Assembly: GCF_030384885.1 (NCBI RefSeq)
Contig: NZ_CP128613.1
Reading direction: 5' to 3' (one strand)
Length of the DNA stretch: 64,000 bases
Source of the DNA: Escherichia coli
GTDB taxonomy: Bacteria; Pseudomonadota; Gammaproteobacteria; Enterobacterales; Enterobacteriaceae
The notes under the pieces are model-generated. The model ran no database searches and was not told the origin of the DNA. It saw only the letters and a program-made list of their open reading frames with translations. Positions 1 to 9,569 of this stretch are shown here, in pieces. The first letter of the stretch is position 1, and each line of letters begins with the position of its first letter. A program made the translations under genes and the position numbers.

Positions 1-71
1 TAAAAAACATTCTGACAGAAGAAAATATTTTTCTTTATTAGCGGTAGTTTTATTTATTGCGTTTTCAGGAG
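1..71 (+). pseudogene. emrK: emrK 5' fragment (N-terminal membrane-anchor region), cut off by window edge and separated from the rest of the gene by IS2
   Basis: Frame reads ..KKHSDRRKYFSLLAVVLFIAFSG and is codon-continuous with the sequence after IS2 (AYAYWSLELEDMISTDDAYVTGN..) once the element and one copy of AGGAG are removed; matches EmrA/EmrK-type periplasmic adaptor N-terminus. Confidence 0.8.
67..71. repeat. IS2 target-site duplication copy 1 (AGGAG)
   Basis: Identical 5-mer directly abuts both IS2 ends (67..71 and 1403..1407). Confidence 0.8.
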
Positions 72-82
72 TGGATTTGCCC

Positions 83-988
83 CTATATTTCCAGACACCT
101 GTTATCACTTAACCCATTACTGGCCTGCTGCCGTAGATATTCCCGTGGCGAGCGATAACCCAGTGCACTATGCGGATGCCATTCGTTATAATGCTCGAAC
201 GCCTCTGCAAGGTTCTTTGCTGCCGTTAACCCGTCTGGTTTAGGCATGACACTGATGTAGTCACGCTTTATCGTTTTCACGAAGCTCTCTGCTATGCCGT
301 TACTCTCCGGACTCCGCACCGCCGTGTTCTTCGGTTCAAGCCCCAACATCCGGGCAAACTGCCGTGTTTCATTAGCCCGGTAGCATGAACCATTATCCGT
401 CAGCCACTCTACTGGAGACGCCGGAAGCTCGTTGCCGAAGCGGCGTTCAACCGCTCCCAGCATGACGTCCTGTACTGTTTCACTGTCGAAGCCGCCCGTA
501 GTGACCGCCCAGTACAGTGCCTCACGGTCACAGCAGTCCAGCGCGAACGTGACTCGCAGTTTTTCTCCGTTATCACAGCGGAACTCGAACCCGTCAGAGC
601 ACCATCGTTGATTGCTTTCTTTCACGGCCACTTTGCCAGTATGTGCCCGCTTCGATGGCGGTACAGCGGTTTTTCGCTCAAGCAACAGCGCATTCTGGCG
701 CATGATCCGGTAAACACGTTTGGCATTGATCGCAGGCATACCATCAAGTTCGGCCTGTCTGCGAAGCAGCGCCCATACCCGACGATAACCATACGTGGGC
801 AGCTCTCCGATAACATGGTGTATACGGAGAAGTACATCCATATCATCTGAGTGACGGCTGCGGCGACCATCTTTCCAGTCATCGGTTCGTCTGAGAATGA
901 CGTGCAACTGCGCACGCGACACCCGGAGACAACGGCTGACTAAGCTTACTCCCCATCCCCGGGCAATAAGGGCGCGTGCGCTATCCAC
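83..988 (-). CDS. insD: IS2 transposase OrfB (InsD), DDE integrase-like
   Basis: 301-aa ORF; sequence recalled as IS2 InsD (IS3 family). Confidence 0.9.
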
Positions 989-1311
989 TTTTTTGCACGC
1001 CCATATTCAACGGCTTCTTTAAGGAGTTCATTTTCCATCGTTTTTTTGCCGAGCAGGCGCTGGAGTTCTTTAATCTGCTTCATGGCAGCAGCAAGTTCAG
1101 AGGCAGGAACGACCTGTTCTCCTGCGGCCACAGCAGTAAGACTTCCCTCCTGGTATTGCTTGCGCCAGAGAAATAGCTGGCTGGCTGCCACACCGTGTTG
1201 CCGGGCAACAAGGGAGACCGTCATTCCCGGTTCAAAACTCTGCTGAACAATAGCGATCTTTTCCTGTGTAGTACGCCGTCTGCGTTTCTCCGGTCCTAAG
1301 ACATCAATCAT
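946..1311 (-). CDS. insC: IS2 OrfA (InsC), HTH regulator/transposase N-terminal part
   Basis: 121 aa from [24 protein letters not shown]..; overlaps insD as expected for frameshift-type IS3 family. Confidence 0.85.
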
Positions 1312-1402
1312 CTGCTCTCCAATGACTAGTCTAAAAACTAGTATTAAGACTATCACTTATTTAAGTGATATTGGTTGTCTGGAGATTCAGGGGGCCAGTC
1401 TA

Positions 1403-1407
1403 AGGAG
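1403..1407. repeat. IS2 target-site duplication copy 2 (AGGAG)
   Basis: Direct repeat of 67..71. Confidence 0.8.
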
Positions 1408-2480
1408 CCTATGCCTATTGGTCACTAGAATTAGAAGACATGATCAGTACAGATGACGCCTATGTTACGGGGAATGCTGATCCAATTTCTGCACAAGTCT
1501 CAGGCAGTGTCACTGTCGTTAATCATAAAGATACGAACTTTGTTCGACAGGGCGACATTTTAGTTTCACTGGATAAAACTGATGCTACGATTGCACTCAA
1601 TAAAGCTAAAAATAATCTGGCAAATATTGTGCGACAAACGAATAAACTATACTTACAGGATAAACAATACAGTGCCGAAGTCGCTTCAGCACGTATCCAG
1701 TATCAACAATCTTTAGAAGATTATAATCGTCGTGTGCCGCTAGCAAAGCAGGGGGTTATTTCAAAAGAAACGCTGGAGCACACCAAAGATACGTTAATAA
1801 GTAGCAAAGCGGCATTGAATGCAGCTATTCAGGCTTATAAAGCGAACAAAGCCTTAGTAATGAACACACCATTAAATCGCCAGCCACAAGTTGTTGAAGC
1901 TGCGGATGCAACCAAAGAAGCCTGGTTAGCGCTTAAGCGTACGGATATTAAGAGTCCGGTTACTGGTTATATTGCCCAGCGAAGTGTGCAGGTTGGCGAA
2001 ACAGTGAGTCCTGGACAATCGTTAATGGCTGTCGTACCGGCACGTCAAATGTGGGTTAATGCCAACTTTAAAGAAACACAACTCACGGATGTACGGATTG
2101 GTCAATCGGTTAATATAATCAGCGATCTTTATGGTGAAAATGTTGTGTTTCATGGTCGGGTGACAGGGATCAATATGGGAACCGGCAATGCGTTCTCCTT
2201 ATTACCTGCACAAAATGCGACGGGGAACTGGATCAAAATCGTTCAGCGTGTACCTGTTGAGGTGTCTCTGGATCCAAAAGAACTCATGGAACATCCCTTG
2301 CGCATTGGTTTATCGATGACTGCAACCATTGATACCAGGAACGAAGACATTGCCGATATGCCTGATCTGGCTTCATCCGTGACGTCCATGCCTGCTTACA
2401 CCAGTAAGGCCTTAGTTATCGATACCAGTCCGATAGAAAAAGAGATTAACAACATTATTTCTCATAATGGACAACTTTAA
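1403..2480 (+). pseudogene. emrK: emrK 3' portion (EmrA-family membrane fusion protein), separated from its promoter and first ~35 codons by IS2
   Basis: ORF track 1440..2480 (346 aa) is EmrA/EmrK-like; frame is open back to the IS2 junction at 1403. Confidence 0.85.
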
Positions 2481-4018
2481 TGGCAATCACTAAATCAACT
2501 CCGGCACCATTAACCGGTGGGACGTTATGGTGCGTCACTATTGCGTTGTCATTAGCGACGTTTATGCAAATGTTGGACTCCACTATTTCTAACGTCGCAA
2601 TACCCACAATATCTGGCTTTCTCGGAGCATCAACGGACGAAGGCACATGGGTTATCACATCGTTTGGCGTAGCAAATGCCATTGCGATCCCTGTTACCGG
2701 CAGGCTGGCACAAAGAATAGGCGAATTAAGGTTATTTTTACTATCAGTAACCTTCTTTTCGCTGTCTTCATTAATGTGTAGTCTTTCGACTAATCTTGAT
2801 GTTCTTATATTTTTTAGAGTCGTCCAGGGATTAATGGCGGGGCCGTTAATTCCATTGTCACAGAGTTTATTATTAAGGAATTATCCGCCAGAAAAAAGAA
2901 CATTTGCTTTGGCGTTATGGTCAATGACCGTAATTATCGCTCCGATTTGTGGGCCGATATTGGGTGGCTATATTTGTGATAACTTTAGTTGGGGATGGAT
3001 ATTTTTAATCAATGTCCCTATGGGGATTATCGTCCTGACATTATGTTTAACTTTACTTAAAGGAAGAGAAACTGAAACTTCACCGGTCAAAATGAATTTA
3101 CCAGGGTTGACCCTGTTAGTGCTCGGTGTTGGTGGCTTGCAAATTATGCTTGATAAAGGGCGCGATCTGGATTGGTTCAACTCGAGTACAATAATAATAT
3201 TAACAGTAGTATCAGCTATTTCTCTGATCTCTTTAGTCATTTGGGAGTCGACCTCAGAGAACCCGATTCTTGACCTCAGTTTGTTTAAGTCCCGTAATTT
3301 CACCATTGGTATTGTGAGTATCACCTGCGCGTATTTATTTTACTCTGGAGCGATAGTACTTATGCCGCAGTTACTCCAGGAAACGATGGGGTATAATGCG
3401 ATATGGGCCGGACTTGCTTATGCGCCCATCGGCATCATGCCACTATTGATTTCGCCTTTGATAGGACGTTATGGCAACAAAATAGACATGCGGGTGTTAG
3501 TGACATTTAGTTTTTTGATGTATGCGGTTTGCTATTACTGGCGTTCTGTGACATTTATGCCAACGATTGATTTCACAGGCATCATTTTGCCACAGTTTTT
3601 CCAGGGATTCGCCGTTGCCTGTTTCTTTTTACCCTTAACAACGATTTCGTTTTCAGGGTTGCCAGATAATAAATTTGCCAATGCCTCGAGTATGAGTAAT
3701 TTTTTTCGTACCCTGTCAGGATCAGTTGGTACGTCGTTGACAATGACGTTGTGGGGACGACGCGAATCGTTACACCATAGTCAGTTGACAGCAACCATCG
3801 ATCAATTTAACCCCGTGTTTAATTCATCATCACAAATTATGGATAAATACTATGGTTCGCTTTCAGAGGTTCTTAATGAAATTAATAATGAAATAACTCA
3901 GCAGTCACTTTCAATTTCTGCAAATGAGATTTTCCGTATGGCGGCTATTGCTTTTATCTTACTTACGGTATTGGTTTGGTTTGCGAAACCGCCGTTTACA
4001 GCGAAAGGTGTTGGGTGA
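2480..4018 (+). CDS. emrY: MFS multidrug efflux transporter EmrY (EmrB paralogue)
   Basis: 512-aa 14-TM MFS protein; start overlaps emrK stop (TAATG). Confidence 0.93.
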   Translation: MAITKSTPAPLTGGTLWCVTIALSLATFMQMLDSTISNVAIPTISGFLGASTDEGTWVITSFGVANAIAIPVTGRLAQRIGELRLFLLSVTFFSLSSLMCSLSTNLDVLIFFRVVQGLMAGPLIPLSQSLLLRNYPPEKRTFALALWSMTVIIAPICGPILGGYICDNFSWGWIFLINVPMGIIVLTLCLTLLKGRETETSPVKMNLPGLTLLVLGVGGLQIMLDKGRDLDWFNSSTIIILTVVSAISLISLVIWESTSENPILDLSLFKSRNFTIGIVSITCAYLFYSGAIVLMPQLLQETMGYNAIWAGLAYAPIGIMPLLISPLIGRYGNKIDMRVLVTFSFLMYAVCYYWRSVTFMPTIDFTGIILPQFFQGFAVACFFLPLTTISFSGLPDNKFANASSMSNFFRTLSGSVGTSLTMTLWGRRESLHHSQLTATIDQFNPVFNSSSQIMDKYYGSLSEVLNEINNEITQQSLSISANEIFRMAAIAFILLTVLVWFAKPPFTAKGVG

Positions 4019-4097
4019 TGGTAAAAAGAGGAGGCTAGAGCAGGCAAGTCCGCGGAATTTTGAACCTGTACCATCATTTTATATGGATATTATCAGG

Positions 4098-4134
4098 CAG
4101 CATCGCTCACCCAGGGAAAGGATGGCGATGCTGC
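4098..4134. terminator. 10-bp inverted repeat (GCAGCATCGC..GCGATGCTGC) between convergent emrY and dsdA
   Basis: Stem-loop seen in sequence; no clear U-run, so terminator function is uncertain. Confidence 0.3.
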
Positions 4135-4146
4135 GGTGAAACGTTA

Positions 4147-5475
4147 TTAACGGCCTTTAGCCAGATATTGCTTCATCTCTTCTTCCGGCACCATTCCACC
4201 TCCTGTCGCCCACACCAGATGAGTGGCATTACGCAGTTGTTCTGTGCTGAAACCTTGCATCTGTTGGTAAATTACTGATGCGCACACGCGCTGAGGCCCG
4301 GCCATACCCGCCAGTGCTGAAGGCTCAAGACGAATGTCTTCTTCCTGCGCCAGCCAGCCAAGCATGTCATACATGGTTTGATCGCTAAGGGTATAGAAGC
4401 CATCCAGCAGACGCTCCATTGCCCGCCCGACAAAGCCTGATGCGCGACCAACTGCAAGGCCATCCGCGGCGGTAAGGTTGTCGATACCAATATCCTGAAC
4501 AGAAATCTGATCGTGTAATCCAGTATGGACGCCTAACAGCATACAAGGGGAGTGCGTGGGTTCGGCAAAAAAGCAGTGAACATGATCGCCAAACGCCAGT
4601 TTAAGCCCGAATGCGACGCCACCAGGACCACCGCCAACGCCACACGGCAGATAGACAAACAGAGGGTTATCAGCATCGACAATACGACCTTGCTCGGCAA
4701 ATTGCGCTTTAAGACGCTGGCCTGCGACGGAATACCCAAGGAACAACGTGCGGGAATTCTCGTCATCAATAAAGAAACAGTTCGGGTCAGACTGCGCTGC
4801 TTTACGTCCTTCCTCGACGGCAACCCCATAATCTTGCTCATATTCCACGACCGTAACGCCATGGCTGCGCAGTTTCGCTTTTTTCCATGCCCGGGCATCA
4901 GCAGACATATGTACTGTCACCTTAAAGCCAATGCGGGCGCTCATAATACCGATTGATAACCCCAGATTTCCGGTTGAGCCCACAGCAATGCTGTATTGGC
5001 TAAAGAACTGCTTAAACTCCGGAGAAAGCAGTTTGCTGTAGTCATCTTCAAGCGTCAGCAACCCTGCTTCCAGAGCCAGTTTTTCTGCATGTGCCAGGAC
5101 TTCATAAATCCCGCCGCGTGCTTTTATGGAGCCGGAAATAGGCAAATGGCTATCTTTTTTCAGTAACAGTTGCCCGCTGATCGGTTGCTGATATTCCTTT
5201 TCCAGCCGTTTTTGCATAGCCGGAATGGCAACCAGTTCTGATTCAATAATCCCTCCAGAGGCAGCCGTTTCAGGAAATGCTTTTGCCAGATAGGGGGCAA
5301 AACGAGATAAGCGCGCATGGGCGTCCTGAACATCCTGTTCGGTCAGGCCAACATAAGGTAAACCTTCAGCCAATGAGGTCGTGCCAGGATTGAACCAGGT
5401 GGTTTCTTTAAGAGCAACCAGATCCTTTACCAACGGATACTGGGCGATGAGCGAGTTCATTTTAGCGTTTTCCAT
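4147..5475 (-). CDS. dsdA: D-serine ammonia-lyase (D-serine dehydratase), PLP-dependent
   Basis: 442-aa ORF recognised as DsdA. Confidence 0.95.
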
Positions 5476-5675
5476 AGTATGTCTCTTTGCGCTTCGATGA
5501 TAAATGACAGCAGGAATGTGCCCGCCAGAGCGACGACTGAAGCGATAAATGTCGCTGTCGTATAGTATTTATATGTTTCACTGAGCGTAGCGCCGCAAAA
5601 TTGTTTCATCAGCCAGAAAAACGAGTCCGTAACGATCGTGCAGCCAATCGCAATAATTTCCGGGCTGATGTCTGG
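5457..5675 (-). pseudogene. dsdX: 3' remnant of dsdX (GntP-family D-serine transporter), about 72 codons
   Basis: Minus-strand frame translates ..[45 protein letters not shown].., typical GntP-family C-terminus; the frame is closed by stops upstream of about 5675; exact 3' end and overlap with dsdA start uncertain. Confidence 0.55.
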
Positions 5676-5931
5676 TTACAGCCACAGCACAATGATCCAT
5701 ATTTATATTTTTTCTCCGGGTGGGTGATGCCAGTCGGCATGTTTTACCTACTTGTCTGCATGGTGACTCGTTGGCGAGAACAGAGGCGGAATTGGTTACA
5801 ATTGTCCGGGAATTCTTGTTATTTTTTACTGTATTGTCGTGTCGGGTGATAGGACGTTAAGAATATCGCTGGATCTCGCCAGTGACGTCTGTTTCTGCTA
5901 CAGTGCCCGTTTTACGGCAAACGGCTTGGGT

Positions 5932-6927
5932 ATGGCTTCATTAAAGGATGTCGCACGCCTGGCGGGAGTGTCGATGATGACTGTCTCCCGGGTGATGCAT
6001 AATGCAGAATCTGTGCGTCCTGCAACGCGTGACCGCGTATTGCAGGCAATCCAAACCCTGAATTATGTTCCTGATCTTTCCGCTCGTAAGATGCGCGCTC
6101 AGGGACGTAAGCCGTCGACTCTCGCCGTGCTGGCGCAGGATACTGCTACCACTCCTTTCTCTGTTGATATTCTGCTTGCCATTGAACAAACCGCCAGCGA
6201 GTTTGGCTGGAATAGTTTTTTAATCAATATTTTTTCTGAAGATGACGCTGCCCGCGCGGCACGTCAGCTGCTTGCCCTCCGTCCGGATGGCATTATCTAT
6301 ACTACAATGGGACTGAGGCATATCACGCTGCCTGAGTCTCTGCATGGTGAAAATATTGTATTGGCGAACTGTGTGGCGGATGACCCAGCGTTACCCAGTT
6401 ATATCCCTGATGATTACACTGCCCAATATGAAGCAACACAGCATTTGCTCGCGGCGGGCTATCGTCAACCGTTATGCTTCTGGCTACCGGAAGGTGCGTT
6501 GGCAACAGGGTATCGTCGGCAGGGATTTGAGCAGGCCTGGCGTGATGCTGGACGAGATCTGGCTGAGGTGAAACAATTTCACATGGCCATAGGTGATGAT
6601 CACTACACCGATCTCGCAAGTATACTCAATGCCCACTTCCAGTCTGTAAAACCAGATTTTGATGTTCTGATTTGTGGTAACGATCGCGCAGCCTTTGTTG
6701 CTTATCAGGTTCTTCTGGCGAAGGGGGTACGTATCCCGCAGGATGTCGCCGTAATGGGCTTTGATAATCTGGTTGGCGTCGGGCATCTGTTTTTACCGCC
6801 GCTGACCACAATTCAGCTTCCACATGACATTATCGGGCGGGAAGCTGCATTGCATATTATTGAAGGTCGTGAAGGGGGAAGGGTAACGCAGATCCCTTGC
6901 CCGCTGTTGATCCGTTGTTCCACCTGA
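5932..6927 (+). CDS. cscR: LacI-family repressor of sucrose genes, CscR
   Basis: 331 aa from MASLKDVARLAGVSMMTVSRV (HTH) with periplasmic-binding-fold body; the ORF-track start at 5839 is probably an upstream extension. Confidence 0.9.
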   Translation: MASLKDVARLAGVSMMTVSRVMHNAESVRPATRDRVLQAIQTLNYVPDLSARKMRAQGRKPSTLAVLAQDTATTPFSVDILLAIEQTASEFGWNSFLINIFSEDDAARAARQLLALRPDGIIYTTMGLRHITLPESLHGENIVLANCVADDPALPSYIPDDYTAQYEATQHLLAAGYRQPLCFWLPEGALATGYRRQGFEQAWRDAGRDLAEVKQFHMAIGDDHYTDLASILNAHFQSVKPDFDVLICGNDRAAFVAYQVLLAKGVRIPQDVAVMGFDNLVGVGHLFLPPLTTIQLPHDIIGREAALHIIEGREGGRVTQIPCPLLIRCST

Positions 6928-6934
6928 TATTATG

Positions 6935-8368
6935 TTACCCCAGTTGCCAGAGTGCTCCATGTTGCAGCACGCCCACTCCGTGGGCGGCATAGAGCGACAG
7001 TTCCCGTTCTTCTGGCTGCGGATAGATTCGGCTACTCATCACAGCTTCCCCGTCGTTAATAAATACTTCCACGGATGATGTATCGATAAATATCCTTAGG
7101 GCGAGCGTGTCACGCTGCGGGAGGGGAATACTACGGTAACCATCTAAATTCTCGTGTGGGTAATACCGCCACAAAACAAGTCGCTCAGATTGGTTATCAA
7201 TATACAGCCGCATTCCCGTGCCGAGCTGTAATCCGTAATGTTCGGCATCGCTGTTCTTCAGAGCCCACTGCAACTGAATCTCAACCGCTTGCGCGTTTTC
7301 CTGCAAAACATATTTGTTGCTGATTGTGTGGGGAGAGATTGATTGATGCTGCTGGCGTAACGACTCAGCTTCGTGTACCGGGCGTTGTAGGAGTTTGCCA
7401 TTGCTCTCAGATAGCTCGCGCGCCAGCGTCATGCAGCCTGCCCAGCCTTCACGTTTTGAGGGCATTGGCGATTCCCACATATCCATCCAGCCGATAACAA
7501 TACGCCGACCATCCTTCGCTAAAAAGCTTTGTGGTGCATAAAAGTCATGCCCATAATCAAGTTCAGTAAAATGCCCGGATTGTGCAAAAAGTCGTCCTGG
7601 CGACCATATTCCGGGTATTACACCACTTTGAAAGCGATTTCGATAATTGTATCCCTCGGCATTCATTCCCTGCGGGGAAAACATCAGATAATGTTGATCG
7701 CCAAGGCTGAAAAAGTCCGGACATTCCCACATATAGCTTTCACCCGCATCAGCGTGGGCCAGTACGCGATCGAAAGTCCATTCACGCAATGAACTACCGC
7801 GATAAAGCAGGATCTGTCCCGTGTTGCCTGGGTCTTTCGCCCCGACTACCATCCACCAGGTGTCGGCTTCACGCCACACTTTAGGATCGCGGAAGTGCAT
7901 GATTCCTTCTGGTGGAGTGAGGATCACACCTTGTTTCTCGAAATGAATACCATCCCGGCTGGTAGCCAGACATTGTACTTCACGAATTGCATCGTCATTA
8001 CCTGCACCATCGAGCCAGACGTGGCCGGTGTAGATAAGTGAGAGGACACCATTGTCATCAACAGCACTACCTGAAAAACACCCGTCTTTGTCATTCTCGT
8101 CTCCTGGCGCTAGCGCAATAGGCTCGTGCTGCCAGTGGATCATATCGTCGCTGGTGGCATGTCCCCAGTGCATTGGCCCCCAGTGTTCGCTCATCGGGTG
8201 ATGCTGATAAAACGCGTGATAACGATTGTTAAACCAGATCAGGCCGTTTGGATCGTTCATCCACCCGGCTGGAGGCGCGAGGTGAAAATGGGGATAAAAA
8301 GTATTCCCCCGGCGCTCGTGAAGTTTTGCTAGTGCGTTTTGCGCCGCATGCAATCGAGATTGCGTCAT
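6935..8368 (-). CDS. cscA: Sucrose-6-phosphate hydrolase / invertase (GH32), CscA
   Basis: GH32 motifs WMNDPNG, FRDP, EC present; start taken at MTQSRLHAAQ (477 aa). Confidence 0.92.
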   Translation of the reverse strand: MTQSRLHAAQNALAKLHERRGNTFYPHFHLAPPAGWMNDPNGLIWFNNRYHAFYQHHPMSEHWGPMHWGHATSDDMIHWQHEPIALAPGDENDKDGCFSGSAVDDNGVLSLIYTGHVWLDGAGNDDAIREVQCLATSRDGIHFEKQGVILTPPEGIMHFRDPKVWREADTWWMVVGAKDPGNTGQILLYRGSSLREWTFDRVLAHADAGESYMWECPDFFSLGDQHYLMFSPQGMNAEGYNYRNRFQSGVIPGIWSPGRLFAQSGHFTELDYGHDFYAPQSFLAKDGRRIVIGWMDMWESPMPSKREGWAGCMTLARELSESNGKLLQRPVHEAESLRQQHQSISPHTISNKYVLQENAQAVEIQLQWALKNSDAEHYGLQLGTGMRLYIDNQSERLVLWRYYPHENLDGYRSIPLPQRDTLALRIFIDTSSVEVFINDGEAVMSSRIYPQPEERELSLYAAHGVGVLQHGALWQLG

Positions 8369-8402
8369 TTTAATCATCCTGGTTAAGCAAATTTGGTGAA
8401 TT

Positions 8403-8414
8403 GTTAACGTTAAC
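8403..8414. promoter_or_regulatory. Palindrome GTTAACGTTAAC, copy 1 (candidate LacI-family/CscR operator)
   Basis: Perfect 12-bp palindrome with central CG in cscA-cscK divergent region. Confidence 0.4.
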
Positions 8415-8447
8415 TTTTATAAAAATAAAGCCCCTTATCTTTATAAA

Positions 8448-8463
8448 TGTGATTAATATCACA
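8448..8463. promoter_or_regulatory. CRP (cAMP receptor protein) binding site TGTGATTAATATCACA
   Basis: Perfect match to both CRP half-sites TGTGA-N6-TCACA. Confidence 0.55.
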
Positions 8464-8466
8464 AAT

Positions 8467-8478
8467 GTTAACGTTAAC
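8467..8478. promoter_or_regulatory. Palindrome GTTAACGTTAAC, copy 2 (candidate CscR operator)
   Basis: Second identical 12-bp palindrome 64 bp from the first. Confidence 0.4.
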
Positions 8479-8583
8479 TATGACGTTTTGTGATCGAATG
8501 TGCATGTTTTAGTAAATCCATGACGATTTTGCGAAAAAGAGGTTTATCACTATGCGTAAGTCAGATGAATTTGAGGGAAAAAA

Positions 8584-9498
8584 ATGTCAGCCAAAGTATG
8601 GGTTTTAGGGGATGCGGTTGTCGATCTCTTGCCTGAATCAGACGGGCGCCTACTGCCTTGTCCTGGCGGCGCGCCAGCTAACGTTGCGGTGGGAATCGCC
8701 AGATTAGGCGGAATAAGTGGGTTTATAGGCCGGGTGGGTGATGATCCTTTTGGCGCGTTAATGCAAAGAACGCTGCTAACGGAGGGAGTCGATATCACGT
8801 ATCTGAAGCAGGATGAATGGCACCGAACATCCACGGTGCTTGTCGATCTGAACGATCAGGGGGAACGTTCATTTACGTTTATGGTCCGCCCTAGTGCCGA
8901 TCTTTTTTTAGAGACGACTGACTTGCCCTTCTGGCGACATGGCGAATGGTTACATCTCTGTTCTATTGCGTTGTCTGCTGAACCTTCGCGTACCAGCGCA
9001 TTTACTGCGATGACGGCGATCCGGCATGCCGGAGGTTTTGTCAGCTTCGATCCCAATATTCGTGAAGATCTGTGGCAAGACGAGCATTTGCTCCGCTTGT
9101 GTTTGCGACAGGCGCTACAACTGGCGGATGTCGTCAAGCTCTCGGAAGAAGAATGGCGACTTATCAGCGGAAAAACACAGAACGATCGGGATATATGTGC
9201 TCTGGCAAAAGAGTATGAGATCGCCATGCTGTTGGTGACTAAAGGTGCAGAAGGGGTGGTGGTCTGTTATCGAGGACAAGTTCACCATTTTGCTGGAATG
9301 TCTGTGAATTGTGTCGATAGCACGGGGGCGGGAGATGCGTTCGTTGCCGGGTTACTCACAGGTCTTTCCTCTACGGGATTAGAGACCGATGAGAGAGAAA
9401 TGCGACGAATTATCGATCTCGCTCAACGTTGCGGAGCGCTTGCAGTAACGGCGAAAGGGGCAATGACAGCGCTGCCATGTCGACAAGATCTGGAATAG
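8584..9498 (+). CDS. cscK: Fructokinase (PfkB/ribokinase family), CscK
   Basis: 304-aa sugar-kinase ORF with GAGD motif region. Confidence 0.9.
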   Translation: MSAKVWVLGDAVVDLLPESDGRLLPCPGGAPANVAVGIARLGGISGFIGRVGDDPFGALMQRTLLTEGVDITYLKQDEWHRTSTVLVDLNDQGERSFTFMVRPSADLFLETTDLPFWRHGEWLHLCSIALSAEPSRTSAFTAMTAIRHAGGFVSFDPNIREDLWQDEHLLRLCLRQALQLADVVKLSEEEWRLISGKTQNDRDICALAKEYEIAMLLVTKGAEGVVVCYRGQVHHFAGMSVNCVDSTGAGDAFVAGLLTGLSSTGLETDEREMRRIIDLAQRCGALAVTAKGAMTALPCRQDLE

Positions 9499-9569
9499 TG
9501 AGAAATAAACGGCGAGGCCGTTCTTGTCTCTGAATAGGACGTGAATATTTTAACGACAGGCAGGTAATT

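Follow-up and report, generated by a model that had tools for sequence, protein, structure and literature searches.

The DNA upstream of dsdA in this stretch is, with a probability of about 0.93, the standard csc-type allele of the argW-dsd locus of Escherichia coli, in which an island with the genes of sucrose utilisation has taken the place of dsdC and the 5' part of dsdX. The stretch analysed comprises 64,000 nucleotides and is here called the window. The arrangement has already been published and is ordinary; about half of the complete E. coli genomes have it. The replacement of dsdC-dsdX' by csc at argW is reported for E. coli EC3132, for O157:H7 EDL933/TW14359 and for E. coli W (Jahreis 2002; Moritz & Welch 2006; Connolly 2015; Archer 2011). 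What is new here is only an extra decay of the dsdX stub in a rare lineage and a recombination breakpoint inside that stub.

The csc island covers 5.56 kb (5690..11251). Its left end, which includes the upstream region of cscR, measures 242 bp (5690..5931). It is followed on the plus strand by cscR (5932..6927), the LacI-family repressor gene of the csc system, identified by the PGAP annotation of a 100%-identical genome and by matches to NCBIfam LacI-family models. The gene for the invertase (sucrose-6-phosphate hydrolase), cscA (6935..8368, minus strand; TIGR01322, 481 bits; PGAP), is convergent with cscR, from which it is separated by 7 bp, and is transcribed towards dsdA; its longest open reading frame reaches 8377. 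The plus strand also carries cscK for fructokinase (8584..9498; NF006957, 504 bits; PGAP) and cscB for the sucrose:H+ symporter, an oligosaccharide transporter of the MFS type (9570..10817; TIGR00882, 590 bits; PGAP). The right end of the island (10818..11251) is non-coding or remnant DNA and leads up to argW, the gene of tRNA-Arg(CCT) (11253..11327, minus strand; ARAGORN and Rfam tRNA), an integration hotspot that bounds the island. Every sequence-level feature of the csc-type allele was found: the canonical order and orientation of cscR, cscA, cscK and cscB, collinear with the O157-type strain 147 over 1403..11275, the position between dsdA (4147..5475) and argW, the truncation of dsdX at the common junction and the absence of dsdC.

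The island has replaced 2.37 kb of K-12-type DNA (L002 7619..9985), comprising nucleotides 1-1120 of dsdX, the control region between dsdX and dsdC, dsdC itself and the dsdC-argW spacer. Homology to K-12 returns only at ATGGTGTCCCCTGCAG, window position 11252, the 3' end of argW, and 10818..11251 bears no resemblance to the dsdC-argW spacer of K-12. The original prediction that dsdA had lost dsdC and its cognate transporter was correct: a search of the whole 64-kb window at DNA and protein level, tblastn included, revealed neither dsdC nor nucleotides 1-1120 of dsdX. The window shares with the intact dsdCXA loci of K-12 and CFT073 a dsdA that is 97% identical in DNA, the last 197 nucleotides of dsdX and the 17-nt spacer between the two genes. 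In contrast to them, it lacks dsdC, the dsdC-dsdX control region and codons 1-373 of dsdX, which implies that neither DsdC-dependent induction nor transport by DsdX is available.

The junction between dsdX and the island lies between 5689 and 5690, which is dsdX nucleotide 1121, codon 374, phase 1, in K-12 coordinates. It had been expected near 5675..5690, and the alignment to K-12 puts it inside this bracket. By blastn, homology to the K-12 strain J53 extends from emrK through dsdA to the 3' end of dsdX and stops at 5689; when the 456-bp spacer served as query, the match in genomes whose dsdX is intact covered positions 1..214, i.e., 5476..5689 of the window. A junction at 5652, where megablast ended, was rejected: this is the site of a 21-bp deletion, and sensitive blastn as well as the alignment reach 5689. 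The junction sequence, ...ATATGGATCATTG followed by TGCTG... (also given as ...AAATATGGATCATTG followed by TGCTG...), is identical in six out of six csc-type alleles aligned. Because these alleles differ by up to ~5% elsewhere, the identity indicates that the junction probably goes back to a single ancestral event. Among 100,044 species-representative genomes, none has the junction pattern. On the island side, the DNA had been called AT-rich; with 46% G+C it is only mildly so. Neither an Rfam family nor a notable repeat was found in the spacer between dsdA and cscR, which extends over 5476..5931 and, with cscR starting at 5932, has exactly the 456 bp originally claimed. Across the population, this spacer comes in lengths of 449, 456, 466 and 478 bp; in its island-derived part, TUM13936 (L006) has a deletion of 12 bp and 2EC1 (L005) one of 7 bp.

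In the population, the two forms of the locus are about equally common. A 3-kb query (4000..7000) matched 5395 of 5426 complete E. coli genomes; in 2660 the match continued over the csc side, in the others it ended inside dsdX. The junction, and with it the whole dsdA-cscR spacer, occurs in 2658 of the 5426 genomes, dsdC in 2734. Since these two numbers together come close to the 5395 genomes with dsdA, the csc junction and dsdC are essentially mutually exclusive. The finding agrees with the literature: the csc locus has been described as taking the place of dsdC and of a portion of dsdX at a hotspot of recombination (Connolly et al. 2015, PMC4366372; Connolly et al. 2016, PMC4699771), and utilisation of D-serine and of sucrose as mutually exclusive (PMC11251922, PMC3032704, PMC13054288). 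With the published csc-type strains the window has in common the genes, their order and orientation, the position between dsdA and argW, the junction at dsdX nt 1121, an intact dsdA and the absence of dsdC.

The dsdA gene (4147..5475, minus strand), which encodes D-serine ammonia-lyase, had been predicted to be intact, and it is. Its 442-codon reading frame yields a protein that scores 809 bits with TIGR02035 (cut-off 368), as required of a member of this equivalog family, and that aligns end to end (residues 1-442) with the crystal structure of E. coli DsdA (PDB 3SS7; E 2e-294). Nine amino acids differ from K-12. Lys118, which we take to be the PLP-binding lysine, is retained in SGSIKARGG. 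The pN/pS ratios of dsdA against K-12, strain 147 and NT1F25 are 0.09, 0.07 and 0.09, respectively, based on 24-30 synonymous versus 6-9 nonsynonymous differences from these three alleles. Such values suggest strong purifying selection, hence a gene that would be used at least sometimes, and they are a poor fit to complete silence. K1 strains are known to have a further dsdCXA copy at another site, and the strain might have one outside the 64-kb window; the genome 2013C-4282, which carries the identical allele, has dsdA at a single place.

The fate of dsdX is different. Its remnant (5493..5689, minus strand) consists of 197 nt out of dsdX nt 1121-1338, an ancestral 218 nt having been shortened by 21 bp. 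The "72-codon stub" of the original prediction is an exact description of the minus-strand frame 5457..5675, which is enclosed by a TAA upstream (5676..5678) and a TGA downstream (5457..5459), but only 60 of its codons stem from dsdX (residues 379-445 minus a 7-codon deletion); the last 12 are read-through codons. The assignment of the frame to the C-terminus of a GntP-family permease, i.e., DsdX, holds. Its residues 1-60 match positions 379-445 of the 445 positions of the NCBIfam DsdX equivalog model (E 1e-27), the remnant corresponds to the last 51 positions of Pfam GntP_permease (390-440 of 440), and tblastn with full-length DsdX retrieves residues 374-445 only. The alignment to an intact dsdXA locus, suggested as a check, confirmed the homology and fixed its endpoint. 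A functional DsdX or other GntP-family permease would have about 445 residues and score above the cut-off of 618 bits; the remnant scores 97 bits and contains an internal TAA and the 7-codon deletion. PGAP labels it a pseudogene without N-terminus. It is to be regarded as a remnant rather than a member of the family, and as a presumably non-functional pseudogene. That the stub might be part of a full-length gene in another frame was also considered and rejected: all three minus-strand frames are closed, and tblastn with DsdX and DsdC recovers nothing but residues 374-445.

Several lesions have accumulated in the remnant, and they set the window apart from the published csc-type strains. According to alignment and translation, the TAA at 5676..5678 is a nonsense mutation of Tyr378 (TAT to TAA, minus strand). 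The stop that closes the frame upstream had been taken for the edge of the cscR promoter DNA; it lies, however, within dsdX-derived DNA, which runs on for 14 nt beyond the open frame and 11 nt beyond the TAA, to 5689. Beside it, Pro376 has been changed (CCG to TGG, 5683-5684), and a CCC has become CCA (5673). At 5652..5653 (minus strand), 21 bp corresponding to 7 codons (~Ala389-Ile395) are missing in frame; since the deletion sits between 7-bp direct repeats (GCGATTG), it looks typical of replication slippage. There are also five missense changes. Finally, the former stop of dsdX has mutated from TAA to GAA (5493..5495, minus strand).

This stop loss extends the frame by 12 codons to the TGA at 5457..5459 and thereby generates an overlap of 19 bp with dsdA, whose ATG is at 5475..5473. 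The overlap had been noticed with some reserve. It is real in the window and is the product of a lineage-specific loss of a stop codon; the published csc-type strains have a 17-nt gap in its place. The dsdX of K-12, and likewise that of csc strains such as O157:H7 TW14359 and strain 147, ends with ...SFII and a TAA, 17 nt before the ATG of dsdA and free of overlap, and the native TAA is kept in five out of five other alleles aligned, including NT1F25 and 2EC1. The native spacer itself (5476..5492, minus strand; 17 nt) contains the ribosome-binding region of dsdA, AAGAGA, and a lineage-specific G to A substitution at -5 (5480). A stop-less dsdX end could of course be an ancestral trait of another species. 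Yet the stop-loss pattern is absent from the 100,044 species-representative genomes, and E. coli genomes with an intact dsdX do not match the stub any better than K-12 does, so the idea was dropped. The 60 codons of the stub show 5 nonsynonymous changes and 1 synonymous one, apart from the stop loss, versus 7:24 in dsdA (Fisher's exact p = 0.009). Judged by this contrast, the stub appears to drift neutrally as a pseudogene, while dsdA remains constrained.

The lesions do not have a common distribution. The 21-bp deletion and the TAA codon also occur in NT1F25 and 2EC1, as does the change of Pro376; both strains have preserved the native stop and a K-12-like 3' part of the stub. When the window was compared bin by bin with NT1F25, the two were nearly identical between ~5626 and 11250 (0-3 differences in every 200 bp). 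To the left of ~5626, in the 3' stub, dsdA, the emrY-dsdA spacer and emrKY, they diverge by 3-7%. Near-identity on the right and divergence on the left place a recombination breakpoint at 5621..5652, within the stub, and imply an import by recombination, presumably from an unsampled divergent donor. The divergent block (1403..5621) is equally distant from K-12, the O157-type and NT1F25, with up to ~8% in bins of emrK, and the block of emrK, emrY, dsdA and 3' stub is common to only 12-14 of the 5426 genomes. The eight substitutions specific to the window between 5480 and 5621 are then probably part of this larger block and not a local burst of mutations. As a whole, the dsdA-stub-cscR segment is ~95.5% identical to that of the common csc strains; the short spacer of the 456-bp type is found at >=95% identity, i.e., at least 95%, in ~26 of the 5426 genomes, in 14 of them at 99% or more. 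In the same block, the spacer between the convergent emrY and dsdA (4019..4146) measures 128 bp versus 107 bp in K-12, the O157-type and NT1F25; it has an insertion of ~20 nt (the TTTTATATGGATATTATCAG region) and many substitutions.

How is the orphaned dsdA transcribed? With the replacement by the island, the LysR-type activator DsdC has gone, and so have the permease and the promoter in front of dsdX that depends on DsdC. Without DsdC and this promoter, transcription of dsdA is expected to proceed at a low, uninduced level. The original prediction that the native promoter had been lost is true of the DsdC-dependent one; it overlooked a dsdA promoter element that has been described 115 bp upstream of the ATG (PMC7486766) and, at this distance, falls inside the stub kept here. 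In EHEC, reporter fragments in wild-type context displayed low activity despite this element (PMC7486766). The intact fragment from cscAp to dsdA yielded 63-134 RFU, as opposed to 2001 RFU after the deletion found in the evolved variant LCV2 (PMC7486766). dsdA was up 33-fold only in evolved variants with deletions that remove cscR and let transcription from cscAp or z3622p read through into dsdA, and CscR itself is no repressor of dsd (all PMC7486766). The demand that expression of dsdA must depend on read-through or a new promoter was therefore not borne out: the EHEC wild-type fragment is simply low, and read-through from cscAp works only once cscR has been deleted. Most likely, the intact dsdA of the window is essentially uninduced, with weak basal transcription. 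This reading is carried over from O157:H7; between its dsdA-stub-cscR region and that of the window there are ~4-5% divergence and two indels.

A search of the window for promoters points in no other direction. In a consensus scan of 5300..6100, no sigma-70-like site with at least 9 of 12 matches was found on either strand. A looser scan of the dsdA-facing strand over 5446..5931 gave one 9/12 match (GAGACA, a 15-nt spacer, TAAAAT) and otherwise 8/12 matches. The best match spans the start codon of dsdA, and it cannot drive the gene because its -10 element (5464..5459) lies within it; it was lifted from 8/12, as in O157 and K-12, to 9/12 by the G to A change at -5. Relative to the ATG of dsdA, the lineage-specific substitutions are found at -5, -20, -97, -106, -124, -129, -134 and -146. 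They fall within the published dsdAp zone and the ribosome-binding region, or close to these, and might change basal expression in either direction.

Two alternatives grant dsdA a more active life. The first one is that the wild-type gene is appreciably expressed by read-through from the cscA promoter; D-serine deaminase would then be inducible by sucrose. Indeed, cscA (8368 to 6935) and dsdA (5475 to 4147) share the minus strand and are separated by nothing but cscR, in antisense, and the 456-bp spacer, and no convincing intrinsic terminator was found on the minus strand of this interval. Moreover, cscAp is able to drive dsdA once cscR has been deleted (O'Boyle et al., PMC7486766), and purifying selection acts on the dsdA of csc strains. 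The reporter values of the intact EHEC fragment, 63-134 RFU against 2001 RFU in LCV2, and the failure of the wild type to grow on D-serine (PMC7486766) nevertheless speak against appreciable read-through, as do reports that the phenotypes of D-serine use and of sucrose use exclude each other (PMC11251922, PMC13054288), and the proposal is quite improbable. The second one takes the strong selective constraint of dsdA, with a pN/pS of ~0.08 that holds even among csc-type strains, as a sign of real use: in this rare sublineage, the substitutions in the stub might have rewired basal expression or translation of dsdA, and a csc-positive strain might thus detoxify D-serine. Candidates for such rewiring would be the changes from -124 to -134 in the published dsdAp zone, the one at -5 by the ribosome-binding site and the stop loss across the dsdA start. 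We give this idea as little credit as the read-through.

Least probable of all, and hardly worth considering, is a third proposal, namely that the altered stub has become a new functional small reading frame of 50 codons (5609 to 5460) whose product, with one hydrophobic helix, is coupled to, or modulates, DsdA synthesis: such a frame exists (5457..5609, 50 amino acids, listed among the open reading frames with an ATG start owing to GTG to ATG at 5609), its Val to Met and stop to Glu changes are confined to a 14-genome sublineage, and it overlaps dsdA by 19 nt across the ribosome-binding site and start of the latter, but no Shine-Dalgarno-like sequence precedes the ATG at 5609 (upstream is TTTTTCTGGCTG), no promoter-like site was found upstream of it, its changes need no special explanation because they belong to the 3-7% divergent emrK-emrY-dsdA block, the N:S ratio of the stub is that of neutral drift, and PGAP calls the frame a pseudogene.

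Weak basal transcription of an otherwise uninduced dsdA thus remains the preferred reading, and the phenotype can be predicted along the same line from the EHEC papers: a strain with this locus should be sucrose-positive, fail to grow on D-serine and be sensitive to it. For EHEC, D-serine is an inhibitor and does not support growth (O'Boyle et al. 2020, PMC7486766), and a sucrose-positive, D-serine-negative or -sensitive phenotype has been reported for other strains with the csc locus (PMC7486766, PMC4366372, PMC11251922, PMC3032704, PMC13054288). The evolved EHEC variants LCV2 and LCV10B (PMC7486766) started from the same csc-stub-dsdA locus and demonstrate how an orphan dsdA is switched on. 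They have lost cscR by deletions of 1.1 kb or 5.6 kb; in contrast, cscR and the full 456-bp spacer are intact in the window. Relative to these variants, the window is in what we consider the silent, wild-type configuration, and deletion of cscR might likewise reactivate its dsdA, so that reactivation would be latent.

The significance of all this is limited. Recognising the arrangement only serves to predict a phenotype, sucrose-positive and D-serine-sensitive, and to mark a latent route to D-serine tolerance via deletion of cscR. The switch between dsd and csc is well established as a marker of how E. coli strains have adapted to their niches. Strains with dsdCXA catabolise D-serine, which is abundant in urine and brain. 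The csc-positive intestinal strains, among them most LEE-positive EHEC and EPEC, do not catabolise D-serine, and their type III secretion is repressed by it. The decay of the stub and the breakpoint are minor population-genetic details; they show that one and the same ancient junction has found its way into backgrounds of divergent sequence.

Some observations concern the flanks of the locus. A complete IS2 of 1331 bp (72..1402) is inserted near codon 29 of emrK, with the target duplication AGGAG at 67..71 and 1403..1407. Its two minus-strand reading frames match TnpB (83..988) and TnpA (946..1356) of IS2, and the insertion leaves a 3' emrK frame of 346 codons (1440..2480). In 2013C-4282, otherwise 99.99% identical, the emrK site is free of the element. 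At the other flank, the DNA between cscB and argW (10818..11251) corresponds elsewhere to fragments of genes of CP4-type integrative elements (L003 12827..13009; L009 11976..13397); in other strains these comprise DUF4942, a YeeU-like antitoxin, DUF987, radC and an antirestriction gene. These matches suggest that the csc genes were brought in by a larger element integrated at argW, which later eroded. Between its csc island and argW, 2013C-4282 harbours a CPS-53/KplE1-like prophage remnant of 3.66 kb (L001 15248..18946) with torI, a PACE transporter, a LysR regulator and an intS fragment. The window is devoid of this remnant; a 21-bp sequence at 11247..11267 matches both of its ends and thus resembles an empty attachment site.
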